From assembly GCA_964584335.1 (NCBI GenBank), contig CAZOZN010000001.1:293351-357350 (forward strand): a stretch of DNA of 64,000 nucleotides. Direction: 5' to 3'. A program made the position numbers and the translations under genes. Shown here one piece after another: positions 5,844 through 60,454 of the stretch. The DNA comes from an uncultured archaeon. GTDB lineage: Archaea > Aenigmatarchaeota > Aenigmatarchaeia > PWEA01 > JAGHBM01. Under the pieces are notes generated by a model. That model saw only the letters and a program-made list of their open reading frames with translations. It was not told where the DNA came from and did no database searches. Each line of letters starts with the position of its first letter. The stretch's first letter is position 1.

Positions 5844-6744
5844 TATAATAATTATTGGAGCAGGAATTTCGGGACAAACTGCAGCAATATATGCATCAAG
5901 AAAAAAAATGAACTATCTATTCATAACCAAAGAAATCGGCGGACAGTTCCTTGAGTCCGGGGAAGTTGTAAATTATCCCGGAATAATAAAAACTACCGGC
6001 GAGGAATTTGCATCTGTTATGGAAGAGCAGCTTGAATTTAATGATGTGAGTGTTAATGAAAACGAGGAGGTAAAGTCAATAGAGAAAAAGGAAAAGGGGT
6101 TTAAAGTTACTACAGACAAAAATTCCTACGAATCTTATACGGTTCTGATAGCAACAGGAGCCAGGCACAGGATGCTTAAGGTACCGGGAGAAGAAAGGCT
6201 AAAGAACAAAGGAGTTACCTACTGTGCTGTGTGTGACGGTCCCTTGTTTTCCGGAAAGAATATTGCAATCATAGGCGGTGGAGATTCTGCACTTGAAGCT
6301 GCTGATTTCACAAAAAGTATTGCAAATAAAATATACCTTATAAATAGAAACAAAGACTTTAGTGCGCACGAATATTTGGTTGAAAGAGTAAAATCAATGG
6401 ACAACTTGGAGATAATAGAAGAGTCAAATACAGTTGAAATTTTAGGAGAAGAAATGGTTAAAGGTCTTGTTTACGAGAAGAATGGTGAAAAAAAGGAACT
6501 GGATGTGAATGGTATTATAATAGAGATTGGAAGAGTTCCTAATACCAATTTTGTAAAAGGACTTGTAGAGCTCGACAAACATGGCCATATAATAATTGAC
6601 TGTCAGACAGGAACCTCAGTCGAGGGTATATTCGCGGCAGGTGATTGTGCTTCCGGTCACGAATACCAGTATTGTATAGCCGCGGGGCAGGGTTGTATGG
6701 CTCTTCTTAAGGCAGCAAGATATATAGCAAAAAGAAATCTTTAG
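5836..6744 (+). CDS. trxB: thioredoxin-reductase-family flavoprotein (low-Mr TrxR type)
   Basis: GAGISGQTAA FAD motif, CAVC redox dithiol, GGGDSALEAA second dinucleotide motif, GIFAAGDC. Overlaps the upstream gene by 8 nt. Confidence 0.85.
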   Translation: MYDIIIIGAGISGQTAAIYASRKKMNYLFITKEIGGQFLESGEVVNYPGIIKTTGEEFASVMEEQLEFNDVSVNENEEVKSIEKKEKGFKVTTDKNSYESYTVLIATGARHRMLKVPGEERLKNKGVTYCAVCDGPLFSGKNIAIIGGGDSALEAADFTKSIANKIYLINRNKDFSAHEYLVERVKSMDNLEIIEESNTVEILGEEMVKGLVYEKNGEKKELDVNGIIIEIGRVPNTNFVKGLVELDKHGHIIIDCQTGTSVEGIFAAGDCASGHEYQYCIAAGQGCMALLKAARYIAKRNL

Positions 6745-7167: not shown

Positions 7168-8277
7168 TCACTTCTTATTTTTCTTAACTCTTCTTCTCTC
7201 TTCAATCACCATTATGGGAGGTACCACGCCCAGTGCGGCTACCAGGGAATAGAAAACTCCGAAAGTCAGTGCCACAGAGAAATCCTGTAAGAAAGTAAGA
7301 GTTGCTGTAAGAAGAGCAAGAAAACCTATTATTGTTGTGAATGATGTTAAGGTAAGCCCTTTTCCTACATGCACTACAGCATTAGTAATTGCTTCTTCCG
7401 CGGGGTATTTTTTCCTGTCCTCCTTGAACCTATGTATTATATGTATTGCAAAATCTATTCCAAGACCTATAATTATAGAAAAAACTCCGGTTAATGGTGG
7501 TGATAAAGGTATCCCAACATAACCAAGAGTGCCAAAGGTCCATATCGTGGAAAGTATTATAGGGACCACCGCTATTCCCACGAAAGTTATTCTCCTAAAG
7601 AATAGATATAATATTACAAAAACCGCTAAAAATCCTATGAATGTAACATAGCTAGTTCTTCCGCCCAGACTTCTTCCTATTTCCTCTCCAAGAAATGCAG
7701 AACCGGCAAAATCAACTTTCATCCCCAGCGGTCTTTCGGAAAAGTATACTGTGTTTCTTATATAATTATTTAGCTGGTCTCTTTCAAAATCTGGCATATC
7801 TGCCATCAAAGAGAAAGTCATTATTGCAACTCTCTTGTCTTTGGTGATGAAATCCCCGGATTGTGGATTTTCTTCAAGAAAATAATTTATTTCTTTCTGT
7901 GAAAGAGATATGTCAACTAAATCTGTAACGCTTCTCTTGTTTAGTACAAATTCGTTTTCTTCTATTTGATTTCCTATATTTTCCATTGATTCTAAAATCC
8001 TTTTATCCCTTATATCGCTAACACTCATGGGATCTTTTTCTTCAAGCCTGAATATGAGAATTACGCTTTCTCCGCCTCTCCCTATTTTGTCTCTTATTTT
8101 ATTAAGGGAAATAATAGTATCTATGTCCTCTGGAAGCTGGCTTTCTTCGCTTGTTTCGTTTTCTATGAGAGAAAACCCGGTCGATATTATAATTGTGAAT
8201 ATCAGGAAAGCTGCTATAAAAGTCTTAGGTCTTTTGTTTTCTAGTTTTGCAAGTTTATCAAGATATTTTTCAATCAT
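7168..8277 (-). CDS. RND/MMPL-superfamily exporter, C-terminal half
   Basis: One N-terminal TM, a soluble loop domain, then five TMs with GLGIDFAIHIIHRF. ATGA overlap with the upstream half. Confidence 0.7.
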   Translation of the reverse strand: MIEKYLDKLAKLENKRPKTFIAAFLIFTIIISTGFSLIENETSEESQLPEDIDTIISLNKIRDKIGRGGESVILIFRLEEKDPMSVSDIRDKRILESMENIGNQIEENEFVLNKRSVTDLVDISLSQKEINYFLEENPQSGDFITKDKRVAIMTFSLMADMPDFERDQLNNYIRNTVYFSERPLGMKVDFAGSAFLGEEIGRSLGGRTSYVTFIGFLAVFVILYLFFRRITFVGIAVVPIILSTIWTFGTLGYVGIPLSPPLTGVFSIIIGLGIDFAIHIIHRFKEDRKKYPAEEAITNAVVHVGKGLTLTSFTTIIGFLALLTATLTFLQDFSVALTFGVFYSLVAALGVVPPIMVIEERRRVKKNKK

Positions 8278-9479: not shown

Positions 9480-10796
9480 TTATTCTTCGATAACTCTCTC
9501 CTTTTTTTGGTTGATTCTCTTAAATAAAATACCCTTCTTCCATATGTAGAGACCTACTATTATCAATATAGATATTATTATTACCGTTATCACAGAATTA
9601 TTTACTCTTTCTCTTACAACATCCAATTGTATTGTTTCAGTCTCGGTATAAACCTCGCCATCATCCAAATACCTTATTTCCAAGTCTAGGAAATACTTCT
9701 TAAGTACTGCATCCTCATCTACTGTAAAATCAAAAACAACCTCTCCTGTTTGGTTTTCCTTGAGATTTCCTATAAAATCGTATACTTCCTCGAATTCAAA
9801 AGGCTGGGTGGATTCTCTAAAAACTTTTACGCTAACACTGTTAGCTTCTTCCTCTCCATCATTTTTTACCATTATTCTTATTTCTCCGGAATCTCCCTGT
9901 GAAAGACTCGAAGGATTTACGACTGTTTCTCCTCTTACGATGTAACCAGTGAAAGAATCAGATGAAGTTCCGGTTCCTGCCCTGACTTCTTCTACATTGA
10001 GAATTGGTGATTTTTTTACATTTATTTCCAAGTCAATTTCCTGGCTAACATATTCTTCCCATTGGTTATTGTCATACTTGTATCTTACCACCAGCTTCGC
10101 TTTGTGTATACCGGGCTCGGTTTCTTTATCCACATCCATATAGAAAACCGCGCTTTTTGAGGAGTCTTTGCCAAAATTTCCCAGAGAATATGAATCAGAA
10201 TAGCTGTCACTAGGCTCAAATCCTTCAGGCAAAATCAACTTAGTGCTTACCAAATCTGCATCTCCTTCTCCAACATTCTGTATTTCAACATCCATTTTTA
10301 CCTCTTCCATCCCGGATTTTATATCTTCAGGAAAAGATTTTATTCTGCTTACGGCGAATTCTGGGTTTTTTGATTCTACGTCTACAGTTATTTTTTTCGT
10401 TACGTATGTATTATCTTCCAATCCATCTGTATCGCAGATTAATTTAAGTTCATTTTCTCCCCTGACAGCATTAGAATCGATTCTTACCTTATATTCAAGA
10501 AGAAAATCTTCTCTGTAGCCTAACTTGCCTATTTCCCTTACCGGGTCTTCGTTCGGATCAAGTGAGAAAGGGTATTCAGGATTTAACTTACAAACCACGT
10601 TTTCTGCATCTATTACTCCCTGATTTTCAACTTTTAAGAAAAGCTTCATATATTTACCGGCTTCCGCAGGAAAGGGTTCGTATTTCATTTCTATTATTCT
10701 CAAGCTTGGTAAATTGGTATCCGCAACAGCAAAAGAATAAGAAAAAAAGCTGGTTATAAATAAAGAAATCATAAATACAAAAATATATTTTTTCAT
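9480..10796 (-). CDS. secreted CARDB/S-layer-domain-like protein with C-terminal TM anchor
   Basis: N-terminal signal-like segment. Repeated beta-rich modules of the type V.V.N.G...A..V. C-terminal TM VITVIIISILIIVGLYIW plus a basic tail. Confidence 0.6.
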   Translation of the reverse strand: MKKYIFVFMISLFITSFFSYSFAVADTNLPSLRIIEMKYEPFPAEAGKYMKLFLKVENQGVIDAENVVCKLNPEYPFSLDPNEDPVREIGKLGYREDFLLEYKVRIDSNAVRGENELKLICDTDGLEDNTYVTKKITVDVESKNPEFAVSRIKSFPEDIKSGMEEVKMDVEIQNVGEGDADLVSTKLILPEGFEPSDSYSDSYSLGNFGKDSSKSAVFYMDVDKETEPGIHKAKLVVRYKYDNNQWEEYVSQEIDLEINVKKSPILNVEEVRAGTGTSSDSFTGYIVRGETVVNPSSLSQGDSGEIRIMVKNDGEEEANSVSVKVFRESTQPFEFEEVYDFIGNLKENQTGEVVFDFTVDEDAVLKKYFLDLEIRYLDDGEVYTETETIQLDVVRERVNNSVITVIIISILIIVGLYIWKKGILFKRINQKKERVIEE

Positions 10797-11751: not shown

Positions 11752-12111
11752 TCAAAATTCACATTCCTCACAATCCAAGCCGGGACAGTCAGAATGTCCT
11801 ATTTTCCACTCTAATCCCCATCTCTTAACTTCTTTTATCACATTAAAAAAGTCTTCACCCTTCTCAGTTAATGTGTACTCTGATTTTACGGGAAACTTTT
11901 TAGCCTCTATCTTATTTTTTATTATGCCTTCTTTCTCAAGGCTTTTTAATCTAGCAGAAAGCATTTTAGGAGTTATATCAGGTATCTTCTTTTTTAACTC
12001 GGAATATCTTTTCCATTTGCTTTTCCCCTTGTATATCTCTGCTATTATTAAAACGGTCCATCTTTTCCCCATGTATTTCATTACCTCGTAAATAGGACAA
12101 TCTCTTTTCAT
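11752..12111 (-). CDS. HxlR-family winged-helix transcriptional regulator with Cys-rich C-terminal tail
   Basis: CPIYEVMKYMGKRWTVLII...RYSELKK...ITPKMLSARLKSLEKEGII...EYTLTEKG. Extra tail HSDCPGLDCEECEF. Divergent from the peroxiredoxin operon. Confidence 0.8.
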   Translation of the reverse strand: MKRDCPIYEVMKYMGKRWTVLIIAEIYKGKSKWKRYSELKKKIPDITPKMLSARLKSLEKEGIIKNKIEAKKFPVKSEYTLTEKGEDFFNVIKEVKRWGLEWKIGHSDCPGLDCEECEF

Positions 12112-12187
12112 ACTATACTTTTTGAAACTCTATTATATAAATATAATTATGATACTAAGTATAATAAAGATACTAAAGGTGATAAAA

Positions 12188-12939: not shown

Positions 12940-13227
12940 ATGCTTTCAAAGATACCTATAGACTTGAAAAACATAAAAAAAGAGGACTTAGACAAGGAAA
13001 TACTAAGAGCCGGTATAATAGCAGAATATGATGCTATAAACCTCTACGAGCAGATGGCAGCTCTTGCACAGGACGAAAACATAAAAAAAGTTATGTTGGA
13101 TGTCGCCAAGGAAGAAAAGGAGCATGTAGGTGAATTTCAGACACTTCTCCTAAAAAGAGATAAAGAGCTTGGAGAAGAAATGGAAGAAGGAAAAGAAGAG
13201 GTAGAAGAATTAACAGGAGGTGAATAA
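12940..13227 (+). CDS. small ferritin-like (EncFtn/rubrerythrin-related) protein
   Basis: ~95 aa two-helix protein with [13 protein letters not shown] ... EEKEHVGEF (ExxH metal-ligand pattern). Start moved to the ATG behind AAGGGGTGA. Confidence 0.6.
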
Positions 13228-19652: not shown

Positions 19653-20798
19653 TCAAATAAAACCAACAAGGAAATTAGTTATTATAAGAGATAAAAATAT
19701 AGCGGCCAGTGCTCTGACTGCGAACCTTCTTTTTTTAGGGGCGAACCTCTCAAAAAGAGAGTCGACCATAAGACCGCCATCAAGGGGTTTTATGGGAAAT
19801 ATATTGACAAGACCCACGCCAAGGTTTATTATGAATATCCACTCAAACATCTCTATTATAAATTGCAATACGCCTTCAAATGATGTGTTTTTATATCTCT
19901 TACTTATAACGCGCCTGTCACCGACTCCTGAAATACCTATAAATCCTTTTTCCGAGTCGGTGGGGTTTTCTGCCAAAGTAATATTGTAAGAATCAGAAAT
20001 AGTTTCTATTAATACATTGTCTCCGGGTTTCCTATTCTCCATAAATTCGTTGAGTTCAGCGGCATTTCTTATTCTTTGCCCGTCTATCGAAACTATAACA
20101 CCGGTCATGTTTGATTCCTGCGCCGGGTAAGGCTCTTCGCCGAAGTAAGTGGAATTAGTATAACCTACGTAACCTACAGATTCGGTAAGAAAGGCTGGAG
20201 ATAAAACAAAAAACATAAACAGAGATACAAGACCAGCAACAATAAAATTCGAAAATGAACCTCCGGCATATATCCTTAGCTTGGTCTTCCAGTTAGCTTT
20301 CTTTAACTGTTTTTCATCAGGTTCGACAAAAGCACCGGGTATTATTGCTAGAAGCATTAGTCCCAGATTCTTTATTCTTATGTTTTCCGCTCTTGAAAGT
20401 ATTCCGTGCATTCCCTCATGTGGAAGAACAAGAGAAAAAACGCCTATTATGAAAAACCAGAAAGGTACTCCAACATAACCGTATCCTATTGTAGTATCTT
20501 GGGTTGGAAAAGGAATTACCAAAGATATTCCTGGTCCTCCCGTAGGAGCTCTTATGCTGCTAACAAGAAAATGCAAACCAAATACCATAGCAAAAAAACA
20601 GACAACAACTCCTATCGAACCGAATATTTTCCAGAATTTAGGAGAAGCTTTGGCTATATTATCGATGAATTTTCTTCCCTTCTTAGTCTTTCTCATTATC
20701 AATATTCCTTTTATCTCTATGTTTTTCCTGTCCCTGTAGAGCACTAAAGCAAAGAAAACCATGAAAACTAGAATAGAAAGGACATACAAATCCATCAA
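19653..20798 (-). CDS. site-2 protease (M50 family) with PDZ domain
   Basis: HEGMHG (HExxH) inside a TM segment. PDZ-like insert (GVIVSIDGQRIRNAAELNEFM..PGDNVLI). C-terminal LVNIFPIKPLDGG motif. Confidence 0.8.
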   Translation of the reverse strand: MMDLYVLSILVFMVFFALVLYRDRKNIEIKGILIMRKTKKGRKFIDNIAKASPKFWKIFGSIGVVVCFFAMVFGLHFLVSSIRAPTGGPGISLVIPFPTQDTTIGYGYVGVPFWFFIIGVFSLVLPHEGMHGILSRAENIRIKNLGLMLLAIIPGAFVEPDEKQLKKANWKTKLRIYAGGSFSNFIVAGLVSLFMFFVLSPAFLTESVGYVGYTNSTYFGEEPYPAQESNMTGVIVSIDGQRIRNAAELNEFMENRKPGDNVLIETISDSYNITLAENPTDSEKGFIGISGVGDRRVISKRYKNTSFEGVLQFIIEMFEWIFIINLGVGLVNIFPIKPLDGGLMVDSLFERFAPKKRRFAVRALAAIFLSLIITNFLVGFI

Positions 20799-25807: not shown

Positions 25808-26323
25808 ATGGAAATATCCGATGAGCTCAATAATAAGATTTTGGAAGCTGTAGAAGCAGCAAGAGCGACAGGTTATATTAGAAAAGGTACTAATGAAGCT
25901 ACCAAAGCGGTAGAGAGAGGAGCAGCAGAGCTGGTTGTAATAGCAAAAGATGTTGATCCGCCGGAAATTGTAATGCATTTGCCTCCGCTTTGTGAAGAGA
26001 AAAATATACCTTGTGTTTATACTAAAAGCAAAGATGACCTTGGTAGGGCTGCTGGTATTGATGTAAGATGTGCTGCTATAGCCATAGCAAAATCTGGAGA
26101 AGCAAAAAAGATAATAGAAGAAATAACAGGCAAAGGAAAGAAAGAAGAAACAAAAGAGAAAAAAGAAGCCAAGAAAGAGAAGCCAAAAAAAGAAGAAAAG
26201 AAAGAGCCTAAAAAAGAGGAAAAAGAAAAAAAGACTGAAAAGAAGAAAGAAGAAAAGAAACCAGCGAAGAAAGAAGAAACCAAGGAAGAAAAAAAGAAAG
26301 AAAATACTTCTGAAGCTAAATGA
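25808..26323 (+). CDS. rpl7ae: ribosomal protein L7Ae (C/D and H/ACA kink-turn binder) with ~60-aa Lys/Glu-rich C-terminal tail
   Basis: [43 protein letters not shown] core. The tail starts after ..IEEITGK. Confidence 0.9.
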
Positions 26324-34585: not shown

Positions 34586-35212
34586 ATGTTTAAATTTATT
34601 ATACCGTTAAAAGAGGGGAAATCTACTCAGATTGAGAAAGACGCACCATCGCTTACGGGAATGAAGATGGGAGAAAAATTTGACGGTTCAATTATAGGAC
34701 TTACAGACTATACATTGCAGATATCAGGAGGTAGTGATAAGGAAGGTTTTCCTATGAGAAAAGATTTGCCCGGAACAGGTAGAAAAAGAGCACTTCTTGT
34801 TGGCGGAGTAGGCTGTAAAGGAAGGAAAAAGGGAATTAGAATAAGAAAGACCGTAAGAGGCAACAGAATAGGAGAAGATATATCCCAAATAAACATAAAA
34901 ATAGTAGAAAAAGGCAAAAAGAGTGTTGAAGAACTTCTTGGCTTGGAGAAAGAGGAGAAGCCTAAAGAAGAGCCGGACAAAAAAGAATCTAAAGAAGAAG
35001 AAAAGAAACCAGAGAAGGAAGAAAAACCTGAAGAGAAGAAAGAGGAAAAACCTGAAAAAGAGCCTGAGGAAAAGAAAGAAGAACCAAAAAAAGAGGAAAA
35101 GAAAGAGAAAAAGGATAAAGAAAAAGAAGAACCAAAAAAGGAAACTTCCAAAGAGGACAAGAAAACAGAAAAGAAAGAAGAACCCAAGGAAGAAAAGGAT
35201 GAGAAAAAGTAG
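34586..35212 (+). CDS. rps6e: ribosomal protein S6e with ~85-aa Lys/Glu/Pro-rich C-terminal tail
   Basis: LQISGGSDKEGFPMRKDLPGTGRKRALL...GIRIRKTVRGN core (S6e). The tail starts after ..VEELLGL. Confidence 0.85.
   Translation: MFKFIIPLKEGKSTQIEKDAPSLTGMKMGEKFDGSIIGLTDYTLQISGGSDKEGFPMRKDLPGTGRKRALLVGGVGCKGRKKGIRIRKTVRGNRIGEDISQINIKIVEKGKKSVEELLGLEKEEKPKEEPDKKESKEEEKKPEKEEKPEEKKEEKPEKEPEEKKEEPKKEEKKEKKDKEKEEPKKETSKEDKKTEKKEEPKEEKDEKK
34955..35181 (+). repeat. KE/P-tail cassette, copy 1 (inside rps6e)
   Basis: Hand alignment to 44475-44698 gives 4 G/A substitutions plus one 3-nt indel over 227/224 nt. Confidence 0.9.
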
Positions 35213-43410: not shown

Positions 43411-43983
43411 ATGTTTAAGATAATAGAAGTAGAAGACTCTGTAAGAGTGCCACCAGAGAAATTTGGCAAAGACCTTGAAGAGTCTATAGGAGAAAGTGTA
43501 CAGGAAAAATTTGAAGGTGTTTTCACTCCAGACCTTGGAATAGTCTTGAACCTAGACGGAATAAAAGAAGTAGGAGAAGGTAAACTTATACCGGAAGATG
43601 GTGGAGTTTACTATTCAGCCAAGTTCAAACTTCTTGTATACATACCAGAGGAACATGAAATAACAATAGGAGAGGTAGTTGATATAACAGAATTTGGTGC
43701 TTTTGTTAGGATAGGTCCTGTTGATGCAATGACACACATATCCCAAATAATGAATGATTATGTTAGTTATGATAAGAAAAATTCTACCTTAGTGGGTAGA
43801 GACAACAAAAAAACTCTGAAAGAAGGAGACATAGTGAGAGCCAGAGTCATATCAGTTTCATTCACAAAGAACAACAGAGTAGGATTGACAATGAGACAGA
43901 ATCGTTTGGGTGCTCTAAAATGGATGGAAGACGAAAAGAAAAAAGAAGATCAGAAACAAAACAAAGAAGAAAATAAAAAATAG
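43411..43983 (+). CDS. rpoE: RNA polymerase subunit Rpo7 (E') with S1 domain and short KE-rich tail
   Basis: MFKIIEVEDSVRVPPEKFG N-terminal domain. S1 fold GEVVDITEFGAFVRIGPVDAMTHISQ. Ends in EDEKKKEDQKQNKEENKK. Confidence 0.85.
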   Translation: MFKIIEVEDSVRVPPEKFGKDLEESIGESVQEKFEGVFTPDLGIVLNLDGIKEVGEGKLIPEDGGVYYSAKFKLLVYIPEEHEITIGEVVDITEFGAFVRIGPVDAMTHISQIMNDYVSYDKKNSTLVGRDNKKTLKEGDIVRARVISVSFTKNNRVGLTMRQNRLGALKWMEDEKKKEDQKQNKEENKK

Positions 43984-43991
43984 GTGATATT

Positions 43992-44183
43992 ATGGTCAGA
44001 GAAAAAGTATGTTCGGAATGCAAGAGATTTGTAAGGGGTGATATGTGTCCCGCATGCAAGACTTCAAAATTAACCAGAAACTGGAAGGGGTCTGCCATTA
44101 TAATAGACCCGGAAAGTGAAATAGCAGAAACACTTGGAATAGAAGCTCCCGGAAGATATGCAATTTCTATATCTAAATTTTAG
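43992..44183 (+). CDS. spt4: transcription elongation factor Spt4 (RpoE'')
   Basis: CSECKRF..(6)..CPACK zinc ribbon, then WKGSAIIIDPESEIAETLGI. Confidence 0.8.
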   Translation: MVREKVCSECKRFVRGDMCPACKTSKLTRNWKGSAIIIDPESEIAETLGIEAPGRYAISISKF

Positions 44184-44192
44184 GTGATCAAA

Positions 44193-44711
44193 ATGAAAAT
44201 AAAAATTACAGACACTAAGAAAAATCCTTTGATGAAAAGAGAAGAAATTAAAGGAATTATAGAACACGAAGGAATGCCAACTCCTTCAAGAGCATCATTG
44301 CAAAAATACATATCAAAGGAAAATAAAATAGAGCAAAAACATGTCGACATAAGAAAGGTTTTCTCGGCTTCAGGAAGAGAGGACGCCAAGCTCATAGCAT
44401 ATATTTGGAAAGAAAAAGAGGTTCCTATATTAGCAGAAAAGAAATCCGAAGAGTCAAAGAAGGAAGAAACTAAAGAGAAGCCTAAAGAAGAGCCGGACAA
44501 AAAAGAATCTAAAGAAGAAAAGAAACCAGAAAAGGAAGAAAAACCTGAAGAGAAGAAAGAGGAAAAACCTGAAAAAGAGCCTGAAGAAAAGAAAGAAGAA
44601 CCAAAAAAAGAGGAAAAGAAAGAGAAAAAGAATAAAGAAAAAGAAGAACCAAAAAAAGAAACTTCCAAAGAGGACAAGAAAACAGAAAAGAAAGAAGACA
44701 AAAAGAAATAA
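44193..44711 (+). CDS. rps24e: ribosomal protein S24e with ~90-aa Lys/Glu/Pro-rich C-terminal tail
   Basis: NPLMKREEI...PTPSR..L......K......V.I.K....G......AYIW core. ATG at 44193 behind an AGGTGAT SD. Confidence 0.85.
   Translation: MKIKITDTKKNPLMKREEIKGIIEHEGMPTPSRASLQKYISKENKIEQKHVDIRKVFSASGREDAKLIAYIWKEKEVPILAEKKSEESKKEETKEKPKEEPDKKESKEEKKPEKEEKPEEKKEEKPEKEPEEKKEEPKKEEKKEKKNKEKEEPKKETSKEDKKTEKKEDKKK
44475..44698 (+). repeat. KE/P-tail cassette, copy 2 (inside rps24e)
   Basis: ~98% identical to 34955-35181 by hand alignment. Confidence 0.9.
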
Positions 44712-44737: not shown

Positions 44738-45391
44738 ATGTATATCATAATAGTAGGTGCAGGTGGTATAGGGAAGAAGCTTGTGCAACTTGCTCTGAAA
44801 GACAAGAACAATGTTATTGTAGTAGAAAAAGAACAGGAAAAATGCGAAGAGCTGGCAAGGAAGCAGGATGTTATAATAATAAACGCTGATGCTACAAAAG
44901 AAGAAACACTAAAAGAGGCTGAAATTAAAAAAGCTGATGCCCTTATAGCCACGACCGAAGACGATTCAATAAATTTAATGATAGTTTCTCTGGCGAAAAA
45001 CATGAATGTGCCCATGCTTATTTCTGTGGTTAACAAAGAAGAAGCAAAACCTATGTTTGAGGAAAAGAAAGTTAATATAGTAAAAAATCCAGACGACCTA
45101 ATGGCCGAATATCTATACAAATCACTCAAACATCCAACTGTTGACGACTTCATGCACGTTGGTGAAAATGCAGAGATGTTTACACTCCCTCTCTCAATGA
45201 AATCAAAATTCTCCGGAAAAAGTATCAAAAAAATCAAACTTCCTAAAAAATGCCTTATAGTAGCAATAGAAAGGGAAAAGGAATTTATAATACCGACAAA
45301 CGAGGTAGAAATATATCCAGGAGACAAGATAACTATACTGGCACCTTCAAAACAAGTTGACAAAGTAGCAAAGTTACTGGCGGGCAATTAG
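44738..45391 (+). CDS. trkA: K+ uptake protein TrkA (RCK N+C domains)
   Basis: MYIIIVGAGGIGKKL Rossmann motif, ADALIATTEDD, C-terminal RCK-C. Confidence 0.85.
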   Translation: MYIIIVGAGGIGKKLVQLALKDKNNVIVVEKEQEKCEELARKQDVIIINADATKEETLKEAEIKKADALIATTEDDSINLMIVSLAKNMNVPMLISVVNKEEAKPMFEEKKVNIVKNPDDLMAEYLYKSLKHPTVDDFMHVGENAEMFTLPLSMKSKFSGKSIKKIKLPKKCLIVAIEREKEFIIPTNEVEIYPGDKITILAPSKQVDKVAKLLAGN

Positions 45392-59181: not shown

Positions 59182-60093
59182 ATGATAATAAAGACAGTTC
59201 TTGTGGTTGATGATAGTCAGGAGGTAAGAGAAACTATAAAACACGCCCTGAACAGGAACGGATTCAACACAATAACAGCCAAAAGCGGGGAAGAATGCCT
59301 CAGCAAGCTAAAAGAAATAAAACCTGACCTAATTTTAATCGATATTAAAATAAAAGACATCCCAATAAATGAAATAATTTCAAATTTAGACAACATAAAA
59401 ACAACCATACTTATCCCTAAAGAAACGGGAGAAGAAGAAAAAAAAGAGCTTGAGAAAAACGAAGATGTAATAGGATTTATAGAAAAACCATTCGACATAA
59501 ACAAGCTAATAGAAGAAGTAGAGAAAACAATGGAAAAAAAGGTGGCTCATGACATAATAGACGAGACGAAAATAAACCAAAAAGTACTTCTCTTTATACC
59601 AAATACGAACAAGATATCAAACATAAGCCTTGATATACTAAAACTGCTTACAATGTGGAAAAAACAAAAAATAATTTACATAACACTTCAAAAAAGCAGA
59701 GAAAGATTGATGGAAGTTTTTAATAGAGAAAATATAACAACGGAGAATATTTACTTTGTAGACTGTATAACAGGTTTTTTTAGGACACCGGAAGAAACTC
59801 AAAATACGAAATTTGTTTCTGCTCCGTATGAACTAGACAAAATAAGCGAATCAATAAAATATTTTATGGACAAAAACACTTTCATAATATTTGATTCATT
59901 GTCAACATTACTTGACTACGGATACTACGTTCCTGCTGGAATGGATAAAATATCAAAATTTATAAACAAGTTTTCTGAAAAGTTAAAAAAGACAGAAAGC
60001 AAGATACTTTTCCTTTCGAAGGAAGAAGACAAAAAAATGCTTTTGATAGAAGAATCAATACCAATATATGATAAAATACTTTATTGGAGGTAA
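59182..60093 (+). CDS. response-regulator receiver fused to a P-loop-less KaiC/RecA-like domain
   Basis: REC: VLVVDDSQEVRE...KPDLILIDIKIKD...GFIEKPF. C-terminal: IIYITLQKS...IYFVDCI...FIIFDSLSTLL (KaiC-like strand order), but no GxxxxGK(T/S). Confidence 0.65.
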   Translation: MIIKTVLVVDDSQEVRETIKHALNRNGFNTITAKSGEECLSKLKEIKPDLILIDIKIKDIPINEIISNLDNIKTTILIPKETGEEEKKELEKNEDVIGFIEKPFDINKLIEEVEKTMEKKVAHDIIDETKINQKVLLFIPNTNKISNISLDILKLLTMWKKQKIIYITLQKSRERLMEVFNRENITTENIYFVDCITGFFRTPEETQNTKFVSAPYELDKISESIKYFMDKNTFIIFDSLSTLLDYGYYVPAGMDKISKFINKFSEKLKKTESKILFLSKEEDKKMLLIEESIPIYDKILYWR

Positions 60094-60097
60094 AAAA

Positions 60098-60454
60098 ATG
60101 GACAAGACTATAATGATTGTGGATGACGAGCCTGATATAAGAAAGACTACAAGCACTGTTCTAGAAAAAAATGGATATAAAGTCGTTACAGCCAAAAACG
60201 GAGACGAGTGCCTTAAAAAACTAGAGAAAATAAGGCCTGACCTAATTTTAATGGATATAATGATGCCGGGAACTCCGGTAAAGGAAGTAGTTTCAAAAAT
60301 AGAAGACATAAAAATAGCTTTTCTGAGTGTTGTAAGAACATCCGAAGCCGAAAAAGAGAATCTCAAAAAAACAAAAAACATAGTTGATTTTATTCAGAAA
60401 CCTTTTGATATAAACGAGCTTGTAAAGAAAGTAGAAGAATTAACCAATGAATAA
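60098..60454 (+). CDS. single-domain response regulator (CheY-like)
   Basis: IMIVDDEPDIR, RPDLILMDIMMPG, FIQKPF. GGAGGT SD before the ATG at 60098. Confidence 0.8.
   Translation: MDKTIMIVDDEPDIRKTTSTVLEKNGYKVVTAKNGDECLKKLEKIRPDLILMDIMMPGTPVKEVVSKIEDIKIAFLSVVRTSEAEKENLKKTKNIVDFIQKPFDINELVKKVEELTNE

Follow-up and report, generated by a model that had tools for sequence, protein, structure and literature searches.

In a 64-kb stretch of archaeal DNA with a GC content of about 35% (the window below), the genes of the ribosomal proteins S6e and S24e, non-homologous outside their low-complexity tails, were found to carry the same, almost identical tract in the segments coding for these tails. In our opinion, the tract most probably (a probability of about 0.78) resulted from a recent ectopic gene conversion between the disordered-tail coding tracts of the two genes. 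In the initial annotation of this DNA, the pattern was taken as that expected of gene conversion or of a modular insertion, and conversion is the member of this pair that fits the evidence. The nearest relatives of S6e, S24e and their neighbours in the window belong to metagenome-assembled genomes of Candidatus Aenigmatarchaeota (DPANN). The features considered here, all on the forward strand, are as follows.

25808 to 26323, forward: L7Ae (Pfam PF01248), with a K/E-rich tail of about 65 aa.
34586 to 35212, forward: rps6e, 208 aa, with the S6e domain at residues 1–120 and a predicted disordered K/E/P tail at about 121–208.
34955 to 35181, forward: the rps6e copy of the tract, 227 nt encoding 75 residues, recognised by alignment, self-BLAST and composition.
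43411 to 43983, forward: Rpo7 (RpoE'), matching Pfam SHS2_Rpb7-N plus S1, with an 18-residue K/E/D tail, EDEKKKEDQKQNKEENKK.
43992 to 44183, forward: Spt4/RpoE'' (Pfam PF06093), tail-less, between Rpo7 and rps24e in a conserved gene order.
44193 to 44711, forward: rps24e, 172 aa, with the S24e domain from residue 1 to about 81 and the tail at 82–172.
44433 to 44474, forward: the lead-in of the rps24e gene's own tail, AEKKSEESKKEETK, upstream of the tract.
44475 to 44698, forward: the rps24e copy of the tract, 224 nt.
44699 to 44711, forward: the rps24e gene's own 3' end (..DKKK and stop), unrelated to the end of rps6e.

Both ribosomal proteins were assigned to their families well above the Pfam cut-offs: S6e to PF01092 at residues 11–118 (E = 7.4e-34, 116.7 bits, cut-off 26) and S24e to PF01282 (E = 9.7e-9, 35.7 bits, cut-off 24.5). 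The start of rps24e is the ATG at 44193, which stands after a GGTGAT motif, and the relatives of this protein likewise begin with MKIKI. Pfam matches also confirmed S28e, eIF2-gamma and TrkA in the window, and scans of it with Rfam and for tRNA gave no matches. S6e, S24e and L7Ae are built in the same way, a normal folded domain being followed by 65–91 residues that are nearly all K, E and P. A survey of the open reading frames of at least 60 aa in the window found exactly four that end in a K/E/D-rich segment, namely L7Ae, S6e, Rpo7 and S24e, in agreement with the earlier count of at least four K/E-tailed proteins including Rpo7. The tails of L7Ae and Rpo7 were tried as further copies of the tract and dropped, as their scores against the tails of S6e and S24e are only 14–34, at the low-complexity background; the L7Ae and S6e tails, with 76% identity over 125 nt, are also near this background. 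Antisense open reading frames extend over both tails (34708–35187 and 44180–44701, reverse strand; 159 and 173 aa, rich in S, F and L), and they were rejected as genes and regarded as by-products of the purine-rich coding strand. Elsewhere in the window, positions 59275–59401 and 60188–60314 form a 127-nt direct repeat with 73–80% identity, which corresponds to the receiver domain encoded at the N-terminus of two neighbouring response-regulator-like genes (59182–60093 and 60068–60454); these are ordinary tandem paralogues, and a histidine-kinase-like open reading frame comes after them.

Local alignment joins positions 34955–35181 of the rps6e tail with 44475–44698 of the rps24e tail, 220 of the 224 aligned nucleotides being identical. 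The alignment consists of two blocks (34955–34991 with 44475–44511 and 34995–35181 with 44512–44698), separated by a single 3-nt indel, an extra GAA in rps6e inside a run of GAA at about 34992–34994. The four mismatches (35014/44531, 35068/44585, 35114/44631 and 35140/44657) include three synonymous changes, two GAG to GAA and one AAG to AAA, and one replacement of D by N; they correspond to a divergence of 1.8%, and with the codon indel the copies differ at five places. The reading frame of the tract is the same in both genes. It starts at codon 124 of rps6e, four residues past the folded domain, and in rps24e past 14 residues of that protein's own tail, a lead-in similar to the ..EEKK.. starts of the S24e tails of relatives; it ends at codon 199 of rps6e and at codon 169 of rps24e, four codons short of the rps24e stop. 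No relation between the two genes was found in the 24 nt flanking the tract on each side. The longest exact word common to both copies is 53 nt, and the window contains exactly two occurrences of a 40-mer of the tract, the expected number being 0. The copies lie on one strand as direct repeats, with 9.5 kb between them. Near-identity bounded by unrelated flanks, as found here, is one of the marks by which non-allelic gene conversion is recognised.

The initial annotation described this near-identity with sharp edges inside two genes, and also the differing ends of the latter (..DKKK before the stop of rps24e and ..EPKEEKDEKK before the stop of rps6e at 35210–35212, which are indeed unrelated). 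All its particulars on the tract held; the GAA codon indel in rps6e was missing from it. It was also pointed out there that all four substitutions have G in rps6e and A in rps24e. This pattern is real, but its direction is not significant (4 of 4 one way, two-sided p = 0.125), and the asymmetry was dropped as a signal. Transitions between A and G are the default change in a tract that is 86% purine and lies in an AT-biased genome of 35% GC.

The peptide encoded by the tract contains 40% E, 40% K and 11% P and has a net charge of −1 to −3; its coding strand, with the purine content given above, shows a weak 12-nt periodicity. An AlphaFold2 model of S6e, obtained with an alignment of 25 S6e sequences, has pLDDT values of 85–96 at residues 1–120 and below 50 at residues 123–208, where there is no secondary structure. 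According to this model, the S6e tail is predicted to be a proline-punctuated disordered polyampholyte and not a single alpha-helix. Two known classes of charged segments were considered for the tails and rejected. A charged single alpha-helix (E-R/K SAH) domain does not agree with 11% proline and the lack of a helix in residues 123–208. A KEKE motif, reportedly defined by Realini et al. in 1994 as having more than 60% K plus E/D without proline or aromatic residues, agrees with the content of K plus E/D (about 84%), but not, at 11% proline, with the rule of no proline. As for the role of the tails, we favour the view that they may clothe the surface of the ribosome and of RNA polymerase with a flexible polyampholyte coat, or act there as a solubilising bristle.

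In this lineage, S6e and S24e as a rule carry tails rich in K, E and P. Low-complexity tails of at least 25 aa were found in 110 of the 120 best homologues of S6e (median 73.5 aa) and in 106 of the 119 best homologues of S24e (median 65 aa). Their length varies from 5–20 aa in some Aenigmatarchaeota to 45–120 aa in others and in Woesearchaeota and Iainarchaeum; at the loci of Thermoplasmata and Methanobacteriota the tails are essentially absent, and in solved ribosome structures the archaeal S6e (105–136 aa) and S24e (96–101 aa) are tail-less. Since relatives of both genes carry K/E/P tails, the tails pre-date the exchange. The tails of the window are not alignable with the orthologous tails of the nearest relatives (DNA scores of 26 or less), the folded domains of which have about 70% identity with those studied, and it follows that the tails are old and fast-evolving, whereas the identity between the S6e and S24e tails is recent. 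In the syntenic relative ZINK19-1 scaffold_120, the tails of S6e and S24e have a score of only 12 against each other. The greater closeness of the two copies within the genome than to their orthologues is the second mark of non-allelic gene conversion observed in this DNA.

The exchange may be imagined as a non-reciprocal homologous recombination, or an equivalent template switch, between the two tail-coding segments. Both proteins would already have been tailed at that time, and about 224 bp of one tail would have been overwritten by the sequence of the other, after which four transitions and one codon indel would have arisen between the copies. The purine-rich and weakly 12-nt-periodic coding DNA may have supplied the microhomology at which the exchange started, and such an exchange would be tolerated if, as we infer, the tails are constrained in their composition and charge balance, not in the order of residues. 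A reciprocal crossover between these direct repeats would delete essential genes, that of eIF2-gamma among them, so that only conversion outcomes would be expected to survive.

As to the direction of conversion, there is a weak lean towards S6e onto S24e. The proline fraction is 0.108 in the tract, 0.126 in the tails of S6e relatives and 0.075 in those of S24e relatives (p = 0.025). At 91 aa versus a median of 58 aa in relatives, the S24e tail is unusually long; the S6e tail is of typical length (88 versus 85 aa), and the tract spans nearly the whole of the latter. When the tract was compared with the tails of relatives, the mean z was 2.6 with those of S6e and 1.65 with those of S24e.

A modular insertion or duplication, in which a previously very short rps24e tail gained 224 nt from the rps6e tail and nothing was displaced, differs from conversion in practice only by whether sequence was displaced. 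The sharp edges of the tract and the excess of the 91-aa tail over the median of its closest relatives would suit such an event. However, without the tract only 18 aa of the S24e tail would be left, whereas 14 of the 14 closest S24e relatives have tails of 41–95 aa, and neither terminal repeats nor extra copies nor mobile-element features were found around the tract. A pure insertion is less likely than conversion and, on the whole, improbable. The possibility of a mobile cassette or insertion element was rejected, there being only two copies in 64 kb and the tract lying wholly inside two reading frames. A search for a third carrier of the tract with the full-length S24e as query gave, among the 120 matches listed, a single protein other than S24e, the S6e of the window, which was retrieved through the tail at E = 1.2e-21. 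With the 74-aa peptide of the tract alone as query, a protein search gave no matches, the S6e of the window included, presumably since the composition correction of HMMER discards matches of this kind.

The main residual doubt on the tract concerns the fidelity of the assembly. The source is evidently a metagenome-assembled contig, and low-complexity repeats are a classic source of mis-threading; the tails could have created a tangle in the assembly graph, with the rps24e tail threaded via the path of rps6e or of its strain variant, in which case the second copy would be unreal. We consider this explanation very unlikely on several grounds. The copies are not identical and differ by four single-nucleotide substitutions and the codon indel. 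Their longest common exact word is 53 nt, so that they would form two separate paths for any assembler whose final k is at least 55. The frame is kept in both genes, and analogous tracts are present in independent assemblies of other projects. Occurrence of the cassette at contig ends only, named at the outset as a sign of repeat-induced misassembly, was not observed, both copies being interior to the window, which comes from a contig of 383,829 nt that carries the S6e gene in question.

The gene order around each copy is also that of relatives. Comparison was made with the loci of ZINK19-1 scaffold_120 (L001/L003) and with L004/L005. The context of rps6e kept in relatives is GlnA-L7Ae-S28e-ADK...aIF5B (IF2)-S6e-eIF2g-HTH, and that of rps24e is NTP-transferase-HAD-x-PIN-PPase-Rpo7-Spt4-S24e-TrkA-TrkH. 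A crossover misassembly through the repeat is excluded because neither the heads of the two genes nor the genes downstream of them are swapped in comparison with the relatives. At another locus (L007, 438–650), rps27ae comes after rps24e; in the window (44738–45391) and in its close relatives this place belongs to trkA-trkH. An exact look-up of the S6e and S24e products of the window in the assembly index gave no record, the 40-mer of the tract had zero matches in GTDB species genomes and JGI metagenome contigs, and no second assembly or close relative of the organism was found in the collections searched. The S6e of the window is present in the protein collection used (P0001), and its S24e was not returned by the S24e query.

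Convergence of K/E/P tails under like compositional and codon constraints, with no exchange, could draw on the common composition of tails of one genome (the 76% identity between L7Ae and S6e arises via low complexity alone), but it is effectively refuted by the 98% identity over 224 nt, which includes synonymous positions and the non-repetitive stretches CCGGACAAAAAAGAATCT and GAAACTTCCAAAGAGGAC, and by the DNA local score of 204, against 21.9 ± 3.1 and a maximum of 37 in 500 codon shuffles and a maximum of 53 in 915 between-genome pairs.

The conversion proposed for the tract of the window appears to be one instance of a process that recurs in this lineage and involves the tails of S6e, S24e, L7Ae and Rpo7. 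Several shorter tracts of the same kind were found in other genomes. On ZINK19-1 scaffold_120 (ENA ERZ23499165; L003, 5635–5681 versus 6330–6376), the tails of Rpo7 and S24e, about 0.7 kb apart, have 43 of 47 nt in common, with a score of 35 against a codon-shuffle null of 12.7 ± 2.0 (maximum 27) and the common peptide ..TKAE[S/P]EEPK[E/Q]AK... In Aenigmatarchaeota AUK200 (JAGGZI010000001.1; L009, 6249–6299 versus 10391–10441), the tails of L7Ae and S6e are identical at 51 of 51 nt, this stretch encoding EEKKTEEKKEPVKKEEQ in both proteins. In a second lineage, an S6e tail (L006, 390–893; ERZ27227322) and an S24e tail (L007, 22–438; ERZ23499183) match over about 105 nt, with an identity of about 92% and a 12-nt indel; their score is 56 versus a null of 14.6 ± 2.3, and the pair comes from different samples and is not strictly one genome. 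Two variants of S24e (P0133 and P0134) are without 15 residues of the part common to the latter pair. Finally, the tails of S6e and of an S24e-like protein of 123 aa in Woesearchaeota SI048_bin33 (L051, 10402–10441 versus 20262–20301) have 35 of 40 nt in common, the corresponding peptides being TEEKPVEEVKEEPK and KEEKPVEEVKKEPK.

Scores of tail pairs from different genes of one genome also exceed those between genomes. The 99th percentile of the 915 between-genome pairs (mean 11.1, standard deviation 3.5) was reached by 7 of the 21 within-genome pairs (Mann-Whitney p = 0.0015), an excess to which the codon usage and GC content common within a genome may contribute. The sequences of the tracts differ between lineages and the events are therefore independent; the tract of the window is by far the longest and freshest among those found. 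Repeats of other kinds were noted in the same survey (L042, 5480–5576 versus 7290–7386; L083, 11609–11665 versus 12088–12144; L027, 12610–12726 versus 13070–13186). One of them, 97 nt long with 97% identity, overlaps the start of a Nop5-like open reading frame, and the remaining ones belong to small proteins encoded as tandem paralogues, in which the N-terminus resembles a class III signal (..ATILMLMIT..) and the C-terminal ..RTCVYRIVPPAGRSVQATV is conserved.

A wider generalization may be offered tentatively, and we give it somewhat less than an even chance: the disordered K/E/P tails of S6e, S24e, L7Ae and Rpo7, all essential and mutually non-homologous proteins, would make up a common pool partly homogenised by recurrent ectopic conversion in Aenigmatarchaeota and perhaps more widely in DPANN. 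If this is true, intrinsically disordered regions undergo concerted evolution across unrelated genes, and the tails are interchangeable, sharing one role, encoded by their composition, at the surface of the machineries of translation and transcription. The present case will be of more interest if such recurrent homogenisation of tails across genes holds genome-wide.

Non-allelic conversion is a known process, and the novelty of the case lies in its partners, unrelated essential genes that share only a lineage-specific disordered tail. It may serve as a natural example of recombination that moves the sequence of disordered regions between such genes. Because tails can be exchanged by recombination, they can spread and be homogenised within a genome without gene duplication. 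Such tails and exchanges can also mislead gene trees, homology searches and metagenome assembly. The case also calls attention to the long polyampholyte tails that DPANN archaea carry on subunits of the ribosome and RNA polymerase and that are absent from solved archaeal ribosomes. The searchable literature was found to describe neither K/E tails of ribosomal proteins in DPANN nor conversion from tail to tail.

Among systems already known, highly charged C-terminal tails rich in K and E occur on other proteins of ribonucleoprotein particles: eukaryotic Nop56, Nop58 and dyskerin have tails of KKE/D repeats, and eukaryotic eS6 has a lysine-rich C-terminal extension. The archaeal S6e tail is situated at the same end of the protein as this extension. 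In a phmmer search of the PDB, the S6e of the window was aligned to eukaryotic eS6 (236–250 aa) up to about residue 204, that is, into the K/E tail, and this part of the match probably reflects composition alone. Nothing was found to indicate that the archaeal tails descend from a common ancestor with the eukaryotic KKE/D or eS6 tails, the resemblance being one of composition. Unlike the eukaryotic tails, those described here are punctuated with proline, range in the relatives between 5 and more than 100 aa, and cannot be aligned from one genome to another.

In staphylococci, the Ser-Asp repeat regions of the clf/sdr genes are low-complexity repeats homogenised among genes of surface proteins. 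As in the case considered here, different genes of a single genome exchange a repetitive, compositionally constrained and structurally disordered spacer. The clf/sdr genes, however, are of one family and encode cell-wall proteins, whereas the carriers of the archaeal tails are essential and unrelated subunits of the ribosome and RNA polymerase.

With PEVK-like or 'entropic bristle' segments, the tails of S6e and S24e have in common that they are rich in P, E and K, near-neutral, predicted to be unstructured and located on proteins of the ribosome surface. A coat of flexible ribosomal tails was described in a preprint (bioRxiv 10.64898/2026.06.18.733196) that leaves out Archaea. Unlike the entropic-bristle, PEVK-like and ribosome-coat systems of eukaryotes, bacteria and mitochondria, the archaeal tails have a putative role.

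The closest process is ectopic (non-allelic) gene conversion between duplicated prokaryotic genes, for example, tufA/tufB or rRNA operons. Concerted evolution in prokaryotes (PMC6053082) belongs here as well. The features in common are an intrachromosomal and probably non-reciprocal tract of a few hundred bp, sharp edges, and copies more similar to each other within the genome than to their orthologues. The differences from tufA/tufB or rRNA are that S6e and S24e are no paralogues and have unrelated folds, with homology only in lineage-specific low-complexity tails, and that in this pair it is the tail only, and not a functional domain, that is homogenised.
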